NCBI GenBank assembly: GCA_033286805.1
Contig: GCA_033286805.1_4727.1
Source of the DNA: a phage
Direction: 5' to 3' (one strand)
DNA: 64,000 nucleotides
Shown here: positions 4,787 to 53,987 of the stretch, in pieces
How the letters are laid out: each line of letters begins with the position of its first letter
Position numbering within the stretch: position 1 is the stretch's first letter
Made by a program: the position numbers and the translations under genes
The notes under the pieces: model-generated
Seen by the model: the letters and a program-made list of their open reading frames with translations, nothing else
Told to the model about the DNA's origin: nothing
The model's database searches: none

Positions 4787-5200
4787 TTATGTTTTAATAT
4801 GCACATCGTCAATCCCCTCGGTAATCCAGCCGATGGGAAGGACAATCGTTGTTATCGTGTTATGGGTGTAATGATTGAGAAAGTGGAAATAGTAATTTTT
4901 GTTAGACTGTTCGATCCGTAGGTCGAGGTGCGCGTCTTCAGGTAACCGTAACCAAGCACCGTACAGTTCATTAAACTTACGCTGAATTTTACCGGGGTTC
5001 ATTGGAACCCCACGACCACGACGATGTAGCTGACGTAATGATTCAATCAAACACTCAGAGATACCCGTTGTCGTTCCGTTATCGCTTGTATCAATAACGA
5101 TGAACTCTCGTGACCCACGACCGAGATAAAAGCCAGCGACAAAAGCTGCAGCAACAAAAATTATCGTACCGATACCAATATACCAATAGTAAGTATCCAT
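4787..5200 (-). CDS. small membrane protein (N-terminal TM helix)
   Basis: ATG 5200 with GTGAGG SD; hydrophobic stretch IGIGTIIFVAAAFVAGFYL. Confidence 0.5.
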   Translation of the reverse strand: MDTYYWYIGIGTIIFVAAAFVAGFYLGRGSREFIVIDTSDNGTTTGISECLIESLRQLHRRGRGVPMNPGKIQRKFNELYGAWLRLPEDAHLDLRIEQSNKNYYFHFLNHYTHNTITTIVLPIGWITEGIDDVHIKT

Positions 5201-5211
5201 AACGACCTCAC

Positions 5212-5739
5212 TTATACCCAATAGTCGGCAAGCGGTTTTACCTTATTAATGGGCAACTGTACTTTACCGATGTTCTCTACATCCGCATCAGCGTAGAGAA
5301 CAATTTTATCATCGTCTCTTTCCCAACGAATAATAAATCGACCAGGAAGAAGATTACTCTGTTCAAGAGACGCAGTAACCTGCTGCGTCAAAACAGACAA
5401 CCAAGCAGGCATCAATGTTGCAATATCTAAGTCATTTGACCACTCAGCACGTTGCTCCACTGGACGTAACATACGTTCGACGGTGCGTTGAACCGTTGCG
5501 GTGATATAGCCTTTATCTTCGTCACTGATTGGATCAGGACGAGACACAAAACGTTCAGCAGGCTTGTGGGTAATATATTCATGCAAATCGATGAGTGGTG
5601 TTGTCATAGTACTCGCTCCATCAGAATGTAATTGGGTAACCCGTAGGGTTGTCTGCATGCTATTCAGAAGCGCAAAAGCGCCATAAACAACAACGATACC
5701 AAGTATAGCCAAAACAGAAATCATTAACGTGTATTGCAT
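5212..5739 (-). CDS. membrane protein (N-terminal TM helix)
   Basis: ATG 5739 with GGGGAG SD at 6 nt; TM segment LMISVLAILGIVVVYGAFALL. Confidence 0.5.
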   Translation of the reverse strand: MQYTLMISVLAILGIVVVYGAFALLNSMQTTLRVTQLHSDGASTMTTPLIDLHEYITHKPAERFVSRPDPISDEDKGYITATVQRTVERMLRPVEQRAEWSNDLDIATLMPAWLSVLTQQVTASLEQSNLLPGRFIIRWERDDDKIVLYADADVENIGKVQLPINKVKPLADYWV

Positions 5740-5840
5740 TGTCATCTCCCCTACATACGCATCTTGAAGATCGGTTAAAAACAACAAAAGAAAAAACGAT
5801 ATAAAGCAAGGTCCTCTGATATCAGAGGACCTTGGATCAA

Positions 5841-6497
5841 TTAGCTTGCAGCTTCTTCATTTGTATCAGGTTTGCTTCCCCCTAACAAACCGTCAAACAG
5901 ACCCGTATGTTTCAGGTAGAAGAGAGCGATAGCGCCCATTGCTGCTGCGCTCGTCGCCGTTAACGCAACCCCAGCACGATACTGCCATTTACGGTCAGGC
6001 TTTTGATCAAGAGCCATACGACGCATGTATTCAGCCTCTGCTTCATTCCGATGAATTTCGGATTCAGCCAAGCGGGCTAAGGTATCGCGGTCAAGGTTAT
6101 CATAACGTACGTTCATGGTGGTTTCCTCTTGTTTGGAAGTTGATTGCTTAGTGGATTCTTGGTCAACAGTCGTTTCAGATGGTTCAAACGGCTGGTTGTT
6201 CATTTTCTGATCTTTATTGGTCATGATAGACTCCTTCGATTTTTGAGATGAAATTGATTTAAACCATCGTGGATGGCGGTATTCAGTTTTACATGTGCAG
6301 TTAAGTTTCTCGTGCAGGAAAGCGTAAAAACGTTTTGCGCCTACACGTAAGGCTTTCAGCATTACCCATCCACGAGCACTCAAACGGTGTAGCTGTTGCG
6401 GTATGTCTAGTTTCCTAGCCAAGCGAAAGTATCTTTCAATCACTTCGATAGGAAACCATTGTTGTTCCACATCGGTGAGACTGAAAGTCTTATCCAT
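5841..6497 (-). CDS. hypothetical protein with C-terminal TM helix
   Basis: First ORF downstream of promoter box at 6522-6545; C-terminal hydrophobic segment GVALTATSAAAMGAIALFYL. Confidence 0.5.
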   Translation of the reverse strand: MDKTFSLTDVEQQWFPIEVIERYFRLARKLDIPQQLHRLSARGWVMLKALRVGAKRFYAFLHEKLNCTCKTEYRHPRWFKSISSQKSKESIMTNKDQKMNNQPFEPSETTVDQESTKQSTSKQEETTMNVRYDNLDRDTLARLAESEIHRNEAEAEYMRRMALDQKPDRKWQYRAGVALTATSAAAMGAIALFYLKHTGLFDGLLGGSKPDTNEEAAS

Positions 6498-6521: not shown

Positions 6522-6545
6522 CACTTAAGTAATATAGCCGTGAAA
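6522..6545 (-). promoter_or_regulatory. conserved 24-bp promoter-like box, copy a
   Basis: Plus reading CACTTAAGTAATATAGCCGTGAAA; minus reading TTTCACGGCTATATTACTTAAGTG; 25 nt upstream of ATG of 5841-6497(-). Confidence 0.55.
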
Positions 6546-43992: not shown

Positions 43993-45792
43993 TCAATCGA
44001 TTATGTCACGATCGTTAATTTCTACAATTTCTTCATCGAATCGACCGACGTCTTTCTTCAAGCCTGCATTGGTTGCTGCAACGTCATTTGCAATTTGTGG
44101 GGTAATGATTAACCGACCACGTTCGTCGATAGGTGCGTACATACTGAACTTTTGACGTCCGGTTGGTTCGGAGTGTGGAAGATTCAGATAGCTTGCACAG
44201 AACGGGATGGAACCACTAACCAAACGACTCTCGTCAGCCAATGCAGCACCGCCTGCGTTTTGGCTCTGGAGAACAACATGCGTGCTCACTTTGAACAGCA
44301 TGCAATCACCCGGTGACTGAATCGATGTTGCCACTTTCTCACGTTTATCACGATTGCTCTGGATATTGAGAATCGCTTCCGTTGCAACTTGATTTCGCAA
44401 CGCCTTCTGCACATCGCGATTGGTCATCTCTTTACGGTTGTTCTGTCGTTTGCCACGTTCTGTGGTTTTAAGATGGAACCCCAGTTTAAAGATGCTTTTA
44501 CGCACATCCTCCATGACATATTCCAACACCATCAATTCCTTACCGAACATCGTCGTGGTGTCAACACGACTCATTTCGATAGTAACATTGTCAATCAGAT
44601 ACGCCATAAATTCGTAGAAGTCGTCGCAAGGAATATTTTCCTGTTTGAACTTCTTCTGTTGAATTTCGTCAACGTAAAGATCGAGACTGTCGATGTGGTG
44701 GTTTACATCACGCAACAAACGCGCATCCGCATTGTTGTTATTAAAGATAATCAAACCGAGTAATGTACGCCAATGGTCTGGCGCATTTGCGAACTCCTCA
44801 ACCGGATAGTCTTCCGGAAAACGATCGTAATAACGGTCGATGAGATATAGGAACGCACCGACAAGGCCAAGAACAATACGTTCCGTGCCTCCACGTCTTA
44901 CAGCAATTTGAATATCAGGATGTTTGTAACGTACAGCGCTAGCGCTACGGCTTTTACCGCTTTTGCTGATACTAAAGCCTTTAGGAATAACCCCCATGGT
45001 GCGATAGATTACCCATTGGTCACGCGGAAAATCACGTTCAGCAAGGTTCCGTCCGGTTACGGCTTCGACACCTGCAAAACGTCGGAAACACTCACCCACC
45101 CCGTACTTCGCAAAGAGATAGTGACCCAGTGTGGTTACGCTGGTGTGGTTGATGTTGTCACCGTTCACTTTACTTTGTTTGGTAAGATGATAGATTTGCG
45201 ACCAGGGTAATGACAGGTAATGACGATAATCGATACCGGTCGGTGTATCATTGCTCAGGAACTGATACGGTGTACGTTTAACCGTGATTTTATCACGCGG
45301 AAGCATGATGAACGCCATGTCTTTCGTGTAACTGATTACGGGGTCAGCGAGTACCGCACTGAGAATGAAGTTCGCACCACGTAGACGCATTTTACCACCC
45401 TGACCTACCGCGGGTAATAGGAGAGGATGTCGGATAATGCAGTAGTCCTTTCCGGGTTCACGACGGTCGCCTGATTCCATCGCGCCGTACCAGCGGAATT
45501 CCAGCATCACCATAAACACATCGGAAGGCGCAAGGTCGAAGGTCAGCTTACCGCTATCCTTCCCTTTGGTTTTCTTTCCTCCGCTTAAGTAGTGGAACTG
45601 TTCGCGGGCCATACAGCGACGCAGGCCATGATACACCAGATCCTTAGGTAAACTATCTTTGCTGTTCCGCCAAAGACGATCAACATAGGACTCAACATCT
45701 TGCATCTTATCGACGACGATGTTGCGTGCTATCTTCTCGTTCATCTTCGGTGCAAGCTCAGCGACAGCTTTGCAGAATCTAGGATCCATCAC
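43993..45792 (-). CDS. hypothetical protein (599 aa)
   Basis: Long ORF on dominant strand; no motif recognised. Confidence 0.6.
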   Translation of the reverse strand: MMDPRFCKAVAELAPKMNEKIARNIVVDKMQDVESYVDRLWRNSKDSLPKDLVYHGLRRCMAREQFHYLSGGKKTKGKDSGKLTFDLAPSDVFMVMLEFRWYGAMESGDRREPGKDYCIIRHPLLLPAVGQGGKMRLRGANFILSAVLADPVISYTKDMAFIMLPRDKITVKRTPYQFLSNDTPTGIDYRHYLSLPWSQIYHLTKQSKVNGDNINHTSVTTLGHYLFAKYGVGECFRRFAGVEAVTGRNLAERDFPRDQWVIYRTMGVIPKGFSISKSGKSRSASAVRYKHPDIQIAVRRGGTERIVLGLVGAFLYLIDRYYDRFPEDYPVEEFANAPDHWRTLLGLIIFNNNNADARLLRDVNHHIDSLDLYVDEIQQKKFKQENIPCDDFYEFMAYLIDNVTIEMSRVDTTTMFGKELMVLEYVMEDVRKSIFKLGFHLKTTERGKRQNNRKEMTNRDVQKALRNQVATEAILNIQSNRDKREKVATSIQSPGDCMLFKVSTHVVLQSQNAGGAALADESRLVSGSIPFCASYLNLPHSEPTGRQKFSMYAPIDERGRLIITPQIANDVAATNAGLKKDVGRFDEEIVEINDRDIID

Positions 45793-45828
45793 ACACTCCT
45801 TTCAGAAAGTTGCTTAAGCAGATTAAAG

Positions 45829-47271
45829 TTACTTTTTCGATGACGCTTTCTCAAGAATCTTGAAAAAGGTCATACCTATACCGACAACAGCCGCGGTTAT
45901 GCTTGCAGCGGCTTTCCAAACATCGACGTTACGTTGACGTCGCGCTTCTTCCGCTTCACGTTGTCTTTTTGCCTCTTCATCACGTCGACGTATCTCAGCA
46001 GCAAACTCGTCGTGCTTACGTTTGGATTCTTCGTCTCGACGACGAAGTTCAGCGACGAATTCTTCATGTTTGCGTTTAGCCTCGTCATCACGACGTTTTA
46101 AATCAGCTTGATAATCTTCGTGTATTTGTTTACGTAGATCATCTTGACGCTTCATTTCGGCTTGGTGTTGTTCCATCCTACGTTTTTGTTCGTCTTTAAG
46201 CTGATCGAGTTCGGCTTTATGTTGTTCATCACGCAGCTTTGCGTCGGCGCGATGCGCCTCATGCATCTGTGCGATAACTGCCTTGTGTTCATCCGCCATA
46301 CGTCGCATTTCAGCCATCACCCCTTTAAGGGTTTCTTCTGATGCCTTACGTTCGTAGCTACGTTGGTCGAAATCATTTTTGTAGGCTTCTTTTTGGATGG
46401 GGTCGCGCCAATGTAATGCCGATTCACGTGTCGGAAAAACATTGTACTTCCACATCTCTTTTTCCAAATCTTCGACCGGTACGAAGATGGAGTCATTATT
46501 ACCGAAGGTAACCAACATACCTGGCGCACCTGCTCCATTCGTTGGTTTTATTTCGAACGCTTTCCCCAGCACGTTAACCCATAAGCTATACGGATTATGA
46601 AAGTCGGGTGGCGTCCAATGGATAGTGAGTTGCGTTCCGAGAATCCGGAAACCCTCTGTTTTTCCCGTCAAGCTCCGCGCGCACGTTGCGATGTAGGGGT
46701 GATCAATCCCTTTCGTAACGTGGTCTGCGCTTTTGTATTCTCCTTTAACTTTTACGATTGCCACGTTGATTTGCGCGACATAAGCGGGTTGATTAAAGTT
46801 CAGCGTGTTGAGGTCAATTTGACATATTTCATCCAGCGTATCGTACCAGTCTTGCTGGTCTAATAGACGCGGCATTTTCTCTGTGTTAACAATACGACGG
46901 ATATGCGGTTTCCTTATCGCGTAACCTGTGCCGTTTTTAACACGGAGTATATCCCGACGTCTACCCGCGTAGACGAAGTTTCTGAATGCACCATTCGCAT
47001 TAGATACGTCATGGCTGTCAACTATTACAGGACTACGAAATTTTGAACGTCGTACGATCCTGAATGTATTGCCGTCCTCAACCCTACCAGGAATGTACTG
47101 GAACATATTGTCGGAGGTGATAACCAACACGGTATGGCCAGATTCATTAATACATGCCCATCCTAATTCCAGGTCATATAACGGTTCGGCATAACCGTCA
47201 ATGCGATATGCGTGCGTACCATCCCACGGTTCGAACGCGGTATCACATATTGGCATGGAGGGCATCGTCAA
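45829..47271 (-). CDS. membrane-anchored protein with tandem charged 18-aa repeats and C-terminal TM helix
   Basis: First ORF after promoter box 47416-47439; C-terminal repeats RRRDEE[AS]KRKH[ED]EF[AV]AE[IL] then TM segment ITAAVVGIGMTFF. Confidence 0.6.
   Translation of the reverse strand: MTMPSMPICDTAFEPWDGTHAYRIDGYAEPLYDLELGWACINESGHTVLVITSDNMFQYIPGRVEDGNTFRIVRRSKFRSPVIVDSHDVSNANGAFRNFVYAGRRRDILRVKNGTGYAIRKPHIRRIVNTEKMPRLLDQQDWYDTLDEICQIDLNTLNFNQPAYVAQINVAIVKVKGEYKSADHVTKGIDHPYIATCARSLTGKTEGFRILGTQLTIHWTPPDFHNPYSLWVNVLGKAFEIKPTNGAGAPGMLVTFGNNDSIFVPVEDLEKEMWKYNVFPTRESALHWRDPIQKEAYKNDFDQRSYERKASEETLKGVMAEMRRMADEHKAVIAQMHEAHRADAKLRDEQHKAELDQLKDEQKRRMEQHQAEMKRQDDLRKQIHEDYQADLKRRDDEAKRKHEEFVAELRRRDEESKRKHDEFAAEIRRRDEEAKRQREAEEARRQRNVDVWKAAASITAAVVGIGMTFFKILEKASSKK
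45940..46110 (-). repeat. coding tandem repeat (~54 bp x 3) encoding RRRDEE[AS]KRKH[ED]EF[AV]AE[IL]
   Basis: Repeated DNA units ...cgacgacgaagttcagcgacgaattcttcatgtttgcgttt... within 45829-47271. Confidence 0.6.
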
Positions 47272-47415
47272 CCTCCATCTGATTGAAAACTATCACGCAT
47301 AATACATTTCCCTTTTCTTGTTCTTATCAAGCCGACAGCCGACGGTTTCAGCATCGTTCCTAGCGCGAGAACGACCTTACGTGTTGTCTATGCCTTATTC
47401 ATCGAAGGCGTCTGT

Positions 47416-47439
47416 CACCTAGGTAATGTAAGCGTCAAA
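47416..47439 (-). promoter_or_regulatory. conserved 24-bp promoter-like box, copy c
   Basis: CACCTAGGTAATGTAAGCGTCAAA; between hairpin H9 and start of 45829-47271(-). Confidence 0.55.
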
Positions 47440-47473
47440 TTTTTTCTATTCGCAACGATAAACGGCATAGAAA

Positions 47474-47503
47474 CCTCCCCCAACCCTTACGGGCTGAGGG
47501 AGG
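47474..47503 (-). terminator. CCTCC/GGAGG-type hairpin (H9)
   Basis: cctccccc-aa-ccc-ttac-ggg-ct-gagggagg; ~100 nt downstream of 740-aa gene stop and 35 nt upstream of promoter box 47416-47439. Confidence 0.65.
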
Positions 47504-47602
47504 CTGACTTATGTATCACGGTGCCGGATGAATGTCCGGTGCAATGAAACCATCCGCAACGTTGTCGTCAAGAATATCATCCAACGAAGCAGCTACGGTA
47601 GT

Positions 47603-49825
47603 TCAGTTAGTCTGAACCGGCAGCTTGATGTTTTCAGTGTAGACCTTACGCAGGTTCACAACGTTAATCAGACCCAGCAGCGGGCAGTTGTTAACGAAGC
47701 GGCAGCGCGGCTGAACCATGGTTTCTTTAGAAACCTGACCGTTACGGGTAACCTGAGCAACAGATACCAGTTCCGGTACATACAGGAACATACCGAAGGT
47801 CAGCGGATCCGGAGAACCCTGGATACCACGAGACAGGGTCACGAAGATCTTATCGCGCAGCATGACGTTCGGGTTATCTACAACCACGAAGTTGAAGCTT
47901 ACACCAACGGTACGGAAATCGCCATCGGTCTGCAGGAACTGCGGGATGTAGTTGTCAGTTGCTACTACGCAACGCGGTTTCTCATCAGCGTTGGAAGACA
48001 GCAGCTGCAGAGCTGGCTGATAACCAGACTCAGAGTACATGCGGTATGCCATTTCACGAATCACGTTCATGATCGCAGCAGACACTTCAGCACGACGTTC
48101 TGCGGTGGTGGTACCCTGAACAGATTTCTCCAGGTCCAGGTTGATTTCTTCGAACCACGGACGGATCAGGTAACGACCGAAACCTTCGATCTGGATGTCA
48201 CCGAACTGACGGAAGCGAGAGGTCGCAACCGCTTTCAGTGCGTCTTTGTAGCTGAACAGTTTCTCAACCATCAGGTTGTCGAAACGTGCGTTAGCAGCTT
48301 GGATCAGAACGTCCAGGTCAGCAGCGTTTTCTTCCCAATCCAGCGGACGAGGAATGGAGAACGGAGCCAGCAGGCCGATTGCGTAACGTTCTTGCTTCAT
48401 GTTGAAGTCAAGGTGCTTACCGCGCTCACGACGGTTGCTGTTGTTACGGCGGATACGCAGTTCGTAACCAACCAGTTTGAAGCTCAGGTCTTCAGCCAGT
48501 TGTTTGAACTCTTCGCTCTTACGCGGTTGTTCGATGTTGTCCTGATCAACCAGGCGATACAGTTCAGCGTTAGCGCCGTTAACACGCAGACCCGCTTTCT
48601 CTACGTTGGAAGAACCGTAAACTTCGATCGCCAGCTGAGCAGCAGATTTCGCATCGATGATGTCCTGCAGCGCTTCAGCTTTCGCACCTTTAACGTCTTT
48701 GGTGTTCTCATCAACGAAGATGGAGTGAGTGTCGAACGCCAGGGTCATTTTGCGGAAGTCGCCTTCCAGGGATTTCTGGAAACCGTTGGTGATCAGACCA
48801 GATACGTCGAACGGTACGTAAGAGGTTTTGCTGTGCTTGGTAGATTTGATTTCCACCAGGATTTTGGTCAGCGTGATCTGGGCGTCCAGCGCGTCGGTGT
48901 TGTCGCTGTAACCGTTAGCCAGGATGCTATCGTCTTCAGCGATACCGATCATGTCGATCAGTTTATCAACAGCCAGGTAAGACGTTTTATAAGTTACGCC
49001 TTTAATTTCGATGTCACGCGGAGCAACGATAGTTTTGTCAACGAAGTACTGCGCGTTAGCATCGTCAGCACGATAGATCGGATGCAGATCGGTCACGTCG
49101 TTGGACAGAACGTCGTTGTACATGAACGCATCCAGCAGCGGACGACGTACCCAATCAGCCGGAGTACCGTCAGCGTTACGACGCAGGTGGTTGAACACCA
49201 GCGGACGACGGAAAGATACATCATAACCGATCTGGTTCGGAGCCAGAACGATGGTGTTGTACAGTTCGTTACCCATGCGGCTCAGACGAGAAGCCTTCAC
49301 GTTGAACACAACGGAGTACGGCATCATGTCACGCAGTTCTTTCTGGTCGTAGGACAGCTGAACCAGTTCTTCAGATTCGCAACCGCAGGAATCAGCAGCC
49401 ATCATGACGAAGTTAGAGCTATCGACTTCACGGCCAGACGGAGTGGTGCTGATGTTCATGGAACGTGCTTGTTTAGCATATTCCACCGGGTTGCCATGAG
49501 CCAGCATGATCAGTGCTGCTGCACGAGCCTGCTGTGCGTTCATGGTGAACAGCTGTTCTTCAATACGCTGCTTCTCTTCCGGAGTGGTGGTTTCGAAGCC
49601 CAGCATGGACAGAACCGGTTCTTCGGCTTTACGGATGTCGCTGCTGAAGCTCTTAACATCCATTTCGTTAACCAGTTTGTCCATGGATTTGAAATCAACC
49701 TTAGAAGCAGATTCCATAGACAGGAAGGTGTTCTCCAGACCTTTGTCTGCTGGTTTGCTACCATTAGCGGTCAGGAACTGGCGAGTGGCCGCGACCTGTT
49801 GGCTAAGAAGGGTTTTATCATTCAT
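47603..49825 (-). CDS. major virion structural protein (740 aa); major capsid or tail sheath candidate
   Basis: Strongest codon bias in window (CTG, CCG, CGT, GGT, AAC, TTC preferred); antisense frame stop-free for 766 codons; followed by hairpin 47474-47503. Confidence 0.75.
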   Translation of the reverse strand: MNDKTLLSQQVAATRQFLTANGSKPADKGLENTFLSMESASKVDFKSMDKLVNEMDVKSFSSDIRKAEEPVLSMLGFETTTPEEKQRIEEQLFTMNAQQARAAALIMLAHGNPVEYAKQARSMNISTTPSGREVDSSNFVMMAADSCGCESEELVQLSYDQKELRDMMPYSVVFNVKASRLSRMGNELYNTIVLAPNQIGYDVSFRRPLVFNHLRRNADGTPADWVRRPLLDAFMYNDVLSNDVTDLHPIYRADDANAQYFVDKTIVAPRDIEIKGVTYKTSYLAVDKLIDMIGIAEDDSILANGYSDNTDALDAQITLTKILVEIKSTKHSKTSYVPFDVSGLITNGFQKSLEGDFRKMTLAFDTHSIFVDENTKDVKGAKAEALQDIIDAKSAAQLAIEVYGSSNVEKAGLRVNGANAELYRLVDQDNIEQPRKSEEFKQLAEDLSFKLVGYELRIRRNNSNRRERGKHLDFNMKQERYAIGLLAPFSIPRPLDWEENAADLDVLIQAANARFDNLMVEKLFSYKDALKAVATSRFRQFGDIQIEGFGRYLIRPWFEEINLDLEKSVQGTTTAERRAEVSAAIMNVIREMAYRMYSESGYQPALQLLSSNADEKPRCVVATDNYIPQFLQTDGDFRTVGVSFNFVVVDNPNVMLRDKIFVTLSRGIQGSPDPLTFGMFLYVPELVSVAQVTRNGQVSKETMVQPRCRFVNNCPLLGLINVVNLRKVYTENIKLPVQTN

Positions 49826-53896: not shown

Positions 53897-53920
53897 CACC
53901 TAGGTAATGTAGTCGCGAAA
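53897..53920 (-). promoter_or_regulatory. conserved 24-bp promoter-like box, copy d
   Basis: CACCTAGGTAATGTAGTCGCGAAA; between hairpin H11 and minus block starting at 53693. Confidence 0.55.
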
Positions 53921-53954
53921 TAAACTGGAGTAATGCGAAATAAGACAGCATAGA

Positions 53955-53987
53955 ACCCTCTCCCAACCCAGCAGGGAAGGGAGAGGG
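53955..53987 (-). terminator. CCTCC/GGAGG-type hairpin (H11)
   Basis: ccctctccc-aa-ccc-agca-ggg-aa-gggagaggg; just downstream of 53994-54626 gene and 35 nt upstream of promoter box 53897-53920. Confidence 0.65.

Follow-up and report, generated by a model that had tools for sequence, protein, structure and literature searches.

A core gene of chimallin-encoding jumbo phages specifies a β-rich head on a repeat-built charged helix with a candidate C-terminal membrane anchor

We examined a minus-strand gene in a 64,000-nucleotide (nt) stretch of phage DNA (NCBI GenBank assembly GCA_033286805.1, contig GCA_033286805.1_4727.1), hereafter called the window. Its product, a protein of 478 amino acids (aa), is the Goslar-clade form of the Chimalliviridae core protein cg35, which is gp040 in phage Goslar, gp122 in PhiKZ, and gp001 in RAY; Goslar is a nucleus-forming jumbo phage of this family. 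The protein is a three-part lollipop, consisting of a family-specific β-rich head, a long charged α-helix, and a hydrophobic C-terminal helix that finishes in a short basic stretch. Taken alone, this identification and this anatomy are close to certain.

The role that we favor for gp040 is that of an early-made, membrane-anchored stalked tether. For that statement as a whole, from identity and anatomy through expression to mechanism, we put the chances slightly below even. The protein would be made early on cytoplasmic ribosomes, and its tail would then enter a membrane post-translationally, be it that of the early-infection (EPI) vesicle or the inner membrane. A stiff stalk would then hold the head 10-28 nm off the membrane as a tether or spacer, and such a tether would serve the early compartment-to-nucleus phase and the gene expression that depends on the non-virion RNA polymerase (nvRNAP).

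Identity and family of the gene

The region from 45600 to 47500 is 98.8% identical in nucleotide sequence to Escherichia phage vB_EcoM_Goslar, and the product of the open reading frame (ORF) is 99.4% identical in amino acid sequence to Goslar gp040, which is annotated as "hypothetical protein." An earlier reading made from the letters alone (the sequence-only reading) had proposed an ORF at this place, and the match to an annotated gene bears it out in all but its start: the frame had been opened at a TTG (47271), which is not a likely start codon. The real start is almost certainly the ATG at 47265, since a GGAGG stands 6 nt ahead of it and since Goslar gp040 is annotated from the same ATG.

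The core-gene list of Prichard et al. (2023, Table S3) equates cg35 with Goslar gp040, PhiKZ gp122, and RAY gp001*, all "hypothetical." Genes that occur only in chimallin-encoding phages carry an asterisk in that list; they number about 21 and include cg35. Three kinds of finding place the window protein in this family: homology to its members, a conserved gene position, and restriction to chimallin-encoding phages.

An exhaustive phmmer search with the head domain, covering 1.84 billion representatives, returned only three proteins: the near-identical Goslar-like P0001 and two distant relatives, P0015 and P0016, both 31% identical to the window protein. In these two the head is the same, the charged helix is shorter (~3-4 of the units described below), and the tail is made of W/L-K, 17 apolar residues, K, and a short basic end. 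Their genes lie in the order DnaB helicase, gp42-like gene, major capsid protein (MCP), the gene itself (X), gp123-like gene, and gp124-like gene. In other chimalliviruses the MCP gene and the gp123 homologue always flank a gene of 311-382 aa (PhiKZ gp122, 201phi2-1 gp202, Eowyn gp144, FLC6 gp124, PDCC-1 gp072, FBKp24_371, PS1_0117, and the corresponding gene of PCH45); RTH11 fits this arrangement as well, although its copy is annotated as shorter (see below). The succession of MCP, X, and gp123 homologue on one strand is found in 11 out of 11 lineages inspected; it was seen in the window and Goslar, in loci L002-L005, and in the nine phages just named. Every one of the syntenic orthologues ends in a charged helix and then a hydrophobic or amphipathic helix at the extreme C-terminus.

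The heads taken alone align with the other syntenic N-terminal domains in hhalign (probability 95.5%, E = 1.5e-8, 233 columns). Links through PHROG families point the same way: P0016 leads to phrog_7727 and P0015 to phrog_7286, and Eowyn and FLC6 lead to both of these and to the PhiKZ gp122 family, 15024; the cg35 family comprises PHROGs 15024, 7727, 7286, and 27450. We rejected phrog_1893 as the family of the window protein, as PHROGs gave only a weak match to it, through the charged helix. In a Foldseek comparison with BFVD, the top 33 matches are all uncharacterized chimallivirus proteins (E = 1e-9 to 1e-12), Eowyn gp144 and 201phi2-1 gp202 included. Among further searches for homologues, a word-indexed one with a mixed alignment found only Goslar-like and PDCC-1-like proteins, one with FLC6 gp124 found only its own family, and a scan of IMG/VR found only near-identical Goslar-like contigs.

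The globular N-terminal part of ~300 aa in the sequence-only reading is recovered as the β-rich head. No Pfam family matches the window protein at E ≤ 0.1, a sequence-profile search of the PDB gave nothing below E = 0.1, and the head domain has no match among PDB folds. Across these searches and the BFVD matches above, the head shows no relative outside the chimalliviruses. Within cg35, the window protein shares with the other members the head homology, the position between the MCP and nvRNAP β genes, and a charged helix that leads into a hydrophobic or amphipathic one at the C-terminus.

Two features of the surrounding records differ between lineages. In the Xanthomonas phage RTH11 (L011, 3080-3862) the orthologue is annotated as 207 aa, and 780 nt behind the capsid gene carry no annotation, probably because of a mis-called start or a frameshift in the record. 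In PhiKZ and 201phi2-1 an additional ORF (gp121, L006 3500-3952, and gp201, L009 2970-3488, respectively) runs ~40 nt into the start of the gp122 orthologue. The Goslar clade, unlike them, lacks an ORF at the gp121 position and has instead a ~160-nt leader with a four-codon upstream ORF (ATGTATTATGCGTGA, window 47293-47307).

A charged stalk built from 18-residue units

AlphaFold models aa 289-474 as a single unbroken helix, with a predicted local distance difference test score (pLDDT) of 70-87 across most of the stalk. The charged helix, put at about 130 aa in the sequence-only reading, is longer than that, at ~160 aa (289-448). Between aa 300 and 446, D, E, K, and R make up 54% of the residues at a net charge of 0; there is one Gly and no Pro, and large hydrophobic residues (LIVMFYW) account for 16%. 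Pairs of opposite charge are overrepresented at a spacing of three (i/i+3, z = 6.2) or four residues (i/i+4, z = 4.8) and underrepresented between direct neighbors (i/i+1, z = -4.1).

Enrichment of opposite charges at i/i+3 and i/i+4 is the signature of the ER/K-type charged single α-helix (SAH), as found in myosin VI and X, caldesmon, and the Kelch-motif SAHs. The stalk resembles these proteins in this enrichment, in its content of >50% D/E/K/R with neutral net charge, in its alternating blocks of three or four like charges, and in forming one long predicted helix free of Gly/Pro breaks. It has no homologue among the SAH proteins and departs from them in its strict 18-residue repeat, with a conserved His/aromatic at position 14, a conserved Leu/Met/Ile at position 18, and a straight seam.

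Three tandem copies of an 18-aa motif had been described in the sequence-only reading. The periodicity is real, but the array has six to seven units: six in register (aa 336-443), best kept at aa 390-443, and a seventh, degenerate one upstream (aa 318-335). Only the units at aa 390-407 (KRRDDEAKRKHEEFVAEL) and aa 408-425 (RRRDEESKRKHDEFAAEI) fit the proposed motif well, and that at aa 426-443 fits it in its first half only. Protein identity at a lag of 18 is 0.41 over aa 318-443, compared with 0.11 ± 0.03 in shuffled sequences (z = 10), and none of 5000 shuffles reaches the observed value at any lag. The signal holds (z = 6.5) over aa 318-407, that is, without aa 408-443, the last two of the three obvious units. 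At the DNA level, where 54-bp repeats had been placed at ~45940-46110, TRF does report a 54-nt period (45967-46095), but with only 2.4 copies and 69% matches.

The unit follows the pattern +++---x+++x--ΦxaxΦ, and the dominant period of hydrophobicity is 17.85-18; a His or aromatic residue recurs at position 14 and Leu, Met, or Ile at position 18. Eighteen residues correspond to 5.0 helical turns at 3.6 residues per turn and to a heptad plus a hendecad. Because this is exactly five turns, positions 14 and 18 form a straight, sparse seam. The modeled helix is consistent with either a single α-helix or a weakly self-associating bundle without supercoiling. Stalks in the Goslar clade measure 142-189 aa and are made from the 18-aa units, compared with about 40-90 aa in other members of cg35; in this clade the helix grew to ~160 residues by duplication of the unit.

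Stalk length varies among relatives in whole units

Goslar-like relatives, drawn from Logan assemblies and from Salmonella and E. coli isolate assemblies, encode proteins of 460, 478, 489, or 507 aa with nearly identical heads and tails. All of the length differences lie inside the stalk and comprise 18-aa indels at two separate places and one 11-aa insertion. The 460-aa form has a 54-nt deletion bordered by an imperfect direct repeat (GAACAACAnnnAGCCGAA). The 507-aa form is a mosaic: its head is 96.6% identical to that of the window protein, its proximal stalk is unrelated, and its distal stalk is like that of the 460-aa lineage.

The sequence-only reading had suggested that repeat number could vary by slippage or recombination, and had proposed copy number in related isolates as a check. 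That check confirms whole-unit differences between relatives, with 54-nt indels in the register of the repeat, and it points to recombination; the DNA speaks against slippage at present. One could take the tract for a contingency locus, in which frequent slippage gives phase-like variation within populations, and the four protein lengths found among close relatives, the in-register indels, and the direct repeats at the ends of the 54-nt deletion would all suit such a locus. However, exact direct repeats within the stalk DNA reach 9 nt at most, neighboring units are only 48%-63% identical in DNA, and synonymous sites between units are saturated; even the best pair of units, with 67% protein identity, uses the same codon at only three out of 12 identical residues. 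Slippage today is therefore unlikely. Variants with other unit numbers are otherwise ~15% diverged in DNA or are mosaic, which indicates rare evolutionary events and recombination rather than high-frequency switching, and Goslar and three IMG/VR contigs uniformly encode 478 aa. On this DNA evidence we dropped the contingency explanation, which we consider highly improbable.

The repeat units are thus old, and their number changes through rare unequal recombination and exchange, in a tract that is not of the slippage-prone contingency type. By arithmetic, indels of 18 residues (5.0 turns) and 11 residues (3.06 turns) preserve the angular phase between head and tail, and selection may have acted to preserve it.

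Four of the gp040 variants (P0004, P0007, P0012, and P0013) come from contigs of up to ~244 kb within assemblies labeled Salmonella enterica and E. coli O157. Goslar-like phages have therefore been carried along with sequenced isolates of both hosts.

The C-terminal segment as a candidate anchor

The C-terminal region holds the sole hydrophobic segment of the protein (Kyte-Doolittle peak at aa 449-471, with the 19-aa maximum at aa 453); a hydropathy scan of the window protein found no signal peptide, no N-terminal hydrophobic segment, and no other transmembrane (TM) segment. The layout is W-K-(17 apolar residues)-K-ILEKASSKK, with an uncharged run of 17 residues (AAASITAAVVGIGMTFF) between K450 and K469, and the best 17-aa hydrophobic window stops 10 residues before the C-terminus. 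W449 and F467-F468 stand 19 residues apart, like interface aromatics, and lysines also border the segment. Hydropathy scales divide over the single TM helix of the sequence-only reading: the 19-aa Kyte-Doolittle mean of 1.76 exceeds the threshold of 1.6, but there are only 17 uncharged residues, and the Hessa-scale sum of +2.8 kcal/mol is marginal for spanning a membrane.

The segment is well kept. Among aligned Goslar-like variants it is almost unchanged (two single substitutions), its design is retained at 31% identity in P0015 and P0016, and the arrangement K-(13-17 apolar)-K is found in these two as well as in Eowyn, PCH45, FLC6, and RTH11. Within the FLC6 family, down to 40% identity, no stretch is better conserved than the tail KFIPTVxMGAGAAIVALKSLF, which contains a small-residue GAGAA motif of a type common in the packing of membrane helices. 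The three-part architecture that had been proposed, with its single C-terminal hydrophobic helix, is real, and it is kept both in the homologues of 31% identity and in the syntenic orthologues.

Alternatively, the C-terminal helix could be an amphipathic or hydrophobic docking helix that binds a phage assembly, such as the chimallin shell, the nvRNAP, or a complex for import or export, or could lie peripherally on lipid, with the stalk again spacing the head. The Goslar-clade tail is more hydrophobic than that of PhiKZ gp122, and in PhiKZ gp122, 201phi2-1 gp202, PDCC-1, PS1, and FBKp24 the uncharged runs are no longer than 6-9 residues, at +7.7 to +10 kcal/mol. Even the hydrophobic lineages have just 13-17 apolar residues between two conserved lysines, the invariant small residues of the highly conserved FLC6-family tail fit specific helix-helix packing, and the PhiKZ122 knock-down phenotype (see below) groups with those of nuclear and transcription factors. 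In contrast, the segments of the Goslar clade, Eowyn, PCH45, FLC6, and RTH11 exceed the Kyte-Doolittle threshold (1.6-2.2) and have aromatic or lysine borders typical of membrane interfaces, small-xxx-small motifs are equally typical of TM-TM packing, and a docking partner is not known. We regard docking or peripheral binding as rather unlikely, while giving it real weight. For the Goslar clade, hydropathy and conservation put true membrane anchoring at a little over an even chance; that the tail provides some surface attachment is much more likely.

Long-helix tethers with a tail anchor are familiar from the eukaryotic golgins (giantin, golgin-84, and CASP) and from the bacterial proteins ElaB, YqjD, and YgaM (DUF883). 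Like these, gp040 combines a single C-terminal hydrophobic helix and a very short basic end with the lack of a signal peptide, and has a long α-helical spacer, here predicted to project the N-terminal part into the cytoplasm. Unlike them, it has a phage-specific β-rich head, a marginally hydrophobic anchor, and a spacer that looks less like a heptad coiled coil than like a charged single helix. There is no sequence relation, and DUF883 matches neither the window protein (Pfam, E ≤ 0.1) nor appears among the Pfam hits of the orthologues. A holin or i-spanin was also considered and rejected, as the protein has no N-terminal hydrophobic segment and its gene lies in an RNA-polymerase operon, not in a lysis cassette.

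Operon context and expression

The gene lies between those for the MCP and for gp39, the nvRNAP β subunit and homologue of PhiKZ gp123 (Table 1). The gp39 gene starts 39 nt past the gp040 stop with no terminator between, and from this layout gp040 is the first cistron of an operon with gp39. The gene for gp38, the PhiKZ gp124 homologue, for which no informative family was found, probably belongs to the same operon.

Table 1. Positions in the window of the gp040 gene, its parts, and the flanking features
Feature	Positions	Strand	Evidence
Coding sequence, 478 aa + stop	45829..47265	-	99.4% identity to Goslar gp040; core-gene table; profile, PHROG, and Foldseek links to orthologues
Shine-Dalgarno GGAGG, 6 nt upstream of the ATG at 47265	47272..47276	-	Sequence reading
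N-terminal β-rich head, aa 1-288	46402..47265	-	AlphaFold (low to moderate confidence); hhalign; Foldseek BFVD
Charged α-helical stalk, aa 289-448, ~24 nm if one straight helix	45922..46401	-	AlphaFold; composition
Six in-register 18-aa units, aa 336-443; best-kept aa 390-443 (45937-46098)	45937..46260	-	Lag-18 identity
C-terminal hydrophobic helix W449-F468 (WKAAASITAAVVGIGMTFF), candidate membrane anchor	45862..45921	-	Kyte-Doolittle; conservation
Short basic C-terminal end KILEKASSKK	45832..45861	-	Sequence reading; alignment
Downstream gene: nvRNAP β subunit (gp39), PhiKZ gp123 homologue	43993..45789	-	phrog_2943; tblastn to PHIKZ123
Upstream gene: PhiKZ-type MCP	47603..49825	-	PF25620, E = 5e-218
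Promoter box TTTGACGCT-TACATTAC-CTAGGTGA (whole box TTTGACGCTTACATTACCTAGGTGA), jumbo-phage TATATTAC-type	47415..47439	-	Alignment; consensus
Capsid-gene terminator: hairpin 47472-47505, conserved TATG directly 3′ at 47466-47469	47466..47505	-	Folding; alignment

Upstream, the spacer of 337 nt after the capsid gene contains a terminator hairpin (-30 kcal/mol, z = -5.5), an invariant TATG, and then, ~30 nt further on, the promoter box, so the claim of the sequence-only reading that this is the first gene after a promoter box stands. In L002 and L005 the hairpin is replaced by different, equally paired sequences. The core of the box, TACATTACCTA..TGA, is invariant in both relatives of 31% identity. 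Three more copies occur in the window (53911, 19248, and 6536), always intergenic and on the coding (minus) strand, and give an extended consensus of cACGrC-TAYATTAC-CTArGTGA. A TATATTAC-like motif stands in the equivalent place in PhiKZ, Eowyn, FBKp24, PDCC-1, and PCH45. In PhiKZ this motif marks early promoters, those of the virion RNA polymerase, and by analogy of promoter class gp040 would be expressed early. The box also matches the promoter consensus tabulated for PhiKZ, 201phi2-1, EL, OBP, and N1M2 (PMC7058600). Scanning for sigma-70 promoters and simple terminators was uninformative; the phage uses its own promoter type, and the capsid-gene terminator was found by alignment and folding. 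We rejected ATGTATTATG, near the start, as a promoter motif, since it is not enriched.

The same layout after the capsid gene, a GC-rich hairpin, TATG, ~30 nt of AT-rich spacer, and a TATATTAC-type box, is seen in nine chimallivirus lineages (window 47415-47505, L006 from PhiKZ, L009, L007, L010, L012, L013, L002, and L005). The TATG may belong to the signal for termination, or it may mark a second start site of the late type. The box at 53911 (53911-53960, minus strand) is, like that of gp040, preceded by TTCTATGCTGT. Directly behind the box at 6536 lies an ORF of 218 aa (5841-6497, minus strand) with one hydrophobic helix 25 residues from its C-terminal end (VALTATSAAAMGAIALF), and the two ORFs downstream (5212-5787 and 4787-5221, both minus strand) have N-terminal TM-like helices with Kyte-Doolittle values of 2.4-2.8. 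These three ORFs may form an early membrane-protein cluster.

Published hints to function

Antisense knock-down of PhiKZ122 was a hit in a published screen, with weak effects on plaque-forming units (PFU), colony-forming units (CFU), and the level of ChmA (PMC12571901). It also strongly affected phage transcription 30 min after infection, as did six other knock-downs, those of ChmA, nvRNAP 055, sigma 068, PicA, 124, and 151 (PMC12571901). Transposon sequencing (TnSeq) of PhiKZ found 19 out of 20 chimallivirus-unique core genes to be essential or strongly fitness-conferring (PMC12676376).

The literature searched contains no paper on Goslar gp40, and gp40 is absent from the main text of the preprint on the Goslar virion by cryo-electron microscopy and mass spectrometry, whose supplementary mass spectrometry table was not searched. 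Shared numbers do not mean shared genes: the "gp122" of the Churi/PhiPA3 and SPN3US papers refers to unrelated genes, and Enustun et al., who number genes differently, call the PhiPA3 capsid protein "gp136." According to the review literature, chimallivirus infection begins in a membrane vesicle and capsids assemble on the inner membrane. No phage membrane protein is named in the literature searched for either the EPI vesicle stage or procapsid assembly on the inner membrane, nor is the head-stalk-anchor design of cg35 described there.

The missing procapsid factor raises another possibility, that gp040 is a membrane-bound initiator or scaffold of procapsid assembly, and the gene does adjoin the MCP gene and a PhiKZ gp119-like head-protein gene in all lineages. 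A precedent for such a role is T4 gp40, a small phage membrane protein, encoded near head genes, that acts in portal assembly at the inner membrane where proheads start. The gp040 gene is likewise near head genes, with a membrane location that is predicted only. The two proteins have no similarity, and T4 gp40 differs in having an N-terminal anchor and thus the opposite topology; the gp040 gene, unlike that of T4 gp40, would share an early operon with the gene for a subunit of RNA polymerase. The strong conserved terminator parts the gene from that of the MCP, it has its own promoter of early type, and it is apparently co-transcribed with the nvRNAP subunit instead. Moreover, knock-down of PhiKZ122 alters transcription at 30 min, within a single round of infection, which would be unexpected for a pure head-assembly factor, and its effect on PFU is weak compared with +++ for the MCP knock-down (PMC12571901). 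As an explanation for gp040, a procapsid role seems quite improbable.

Weighing the tether

Several points weigh against a membrane-anchored tether. With just 17 residues here and 13-16 in other lineages, the apolar run is short, summed Hessa energies range from +1.5 to +5 kcal/mol, and the basic C-terminal end (+3) is unfavorable for translocation. In PhiKZ, 201phi2-1, PDCC-1, PS1, and FBKp24 the tails are amphipathic and interrupted by charges, and because of these PhiKZ-type tails the ancestral role of the segment may be peripheral binding or protein docking. The stalk could dimerize, given its weak hydrophobic seam, instead of remaining a single α-helix. A function cannot be read from the fold of the head, since its AlphaFold model is poor (pLDDT 55). 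The early class assigned to the Goslar promoter is carried over from PhiKZ. Finally, the neighboring essential gene, gp123, starts 10 nt past the gp122 stop, and the PhiKZ122 phenotypes from antisense and TnSeq work could stem from polarity on gp123 or from effects at the level of the operon; orf122 is not individually named in the TnSeq text (PMC12676376).

A bolder form of the tether reading would make cg35 the membrane factor, encoded by the phage itself, that is still missing from the chimallivirus early phase: a tail-anchored protein, made early, in the EPI vesicle or the inner membrane next to it. By capturing a component of the nuclear shell, the import machinery, or the nvRNAP, its head would couple the membrane-bound early compartment to the nascent, protein-bound nucleus, and its stalk would set the gap between them in steps of 18 residues, or five turns. 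This more specific proposal is speculative, and we think it improbable.

Among the roughly 21 genes that nucleus-forming phages alone possess, a role is known for chimallin and for only a few more. If the tail does not bind membrane, what is left of our finding is a hypothetical protein, already known, with an unusual expansion of repeats. cg35 has been catalogued but is uncharacterized; its architecture is real, conserved, and unusual, and makes it a candidate membrane tether that can now be tested. The natural series of stalk lengths within one clade (13-28 nm) offers a ready-made "molecular ruler."

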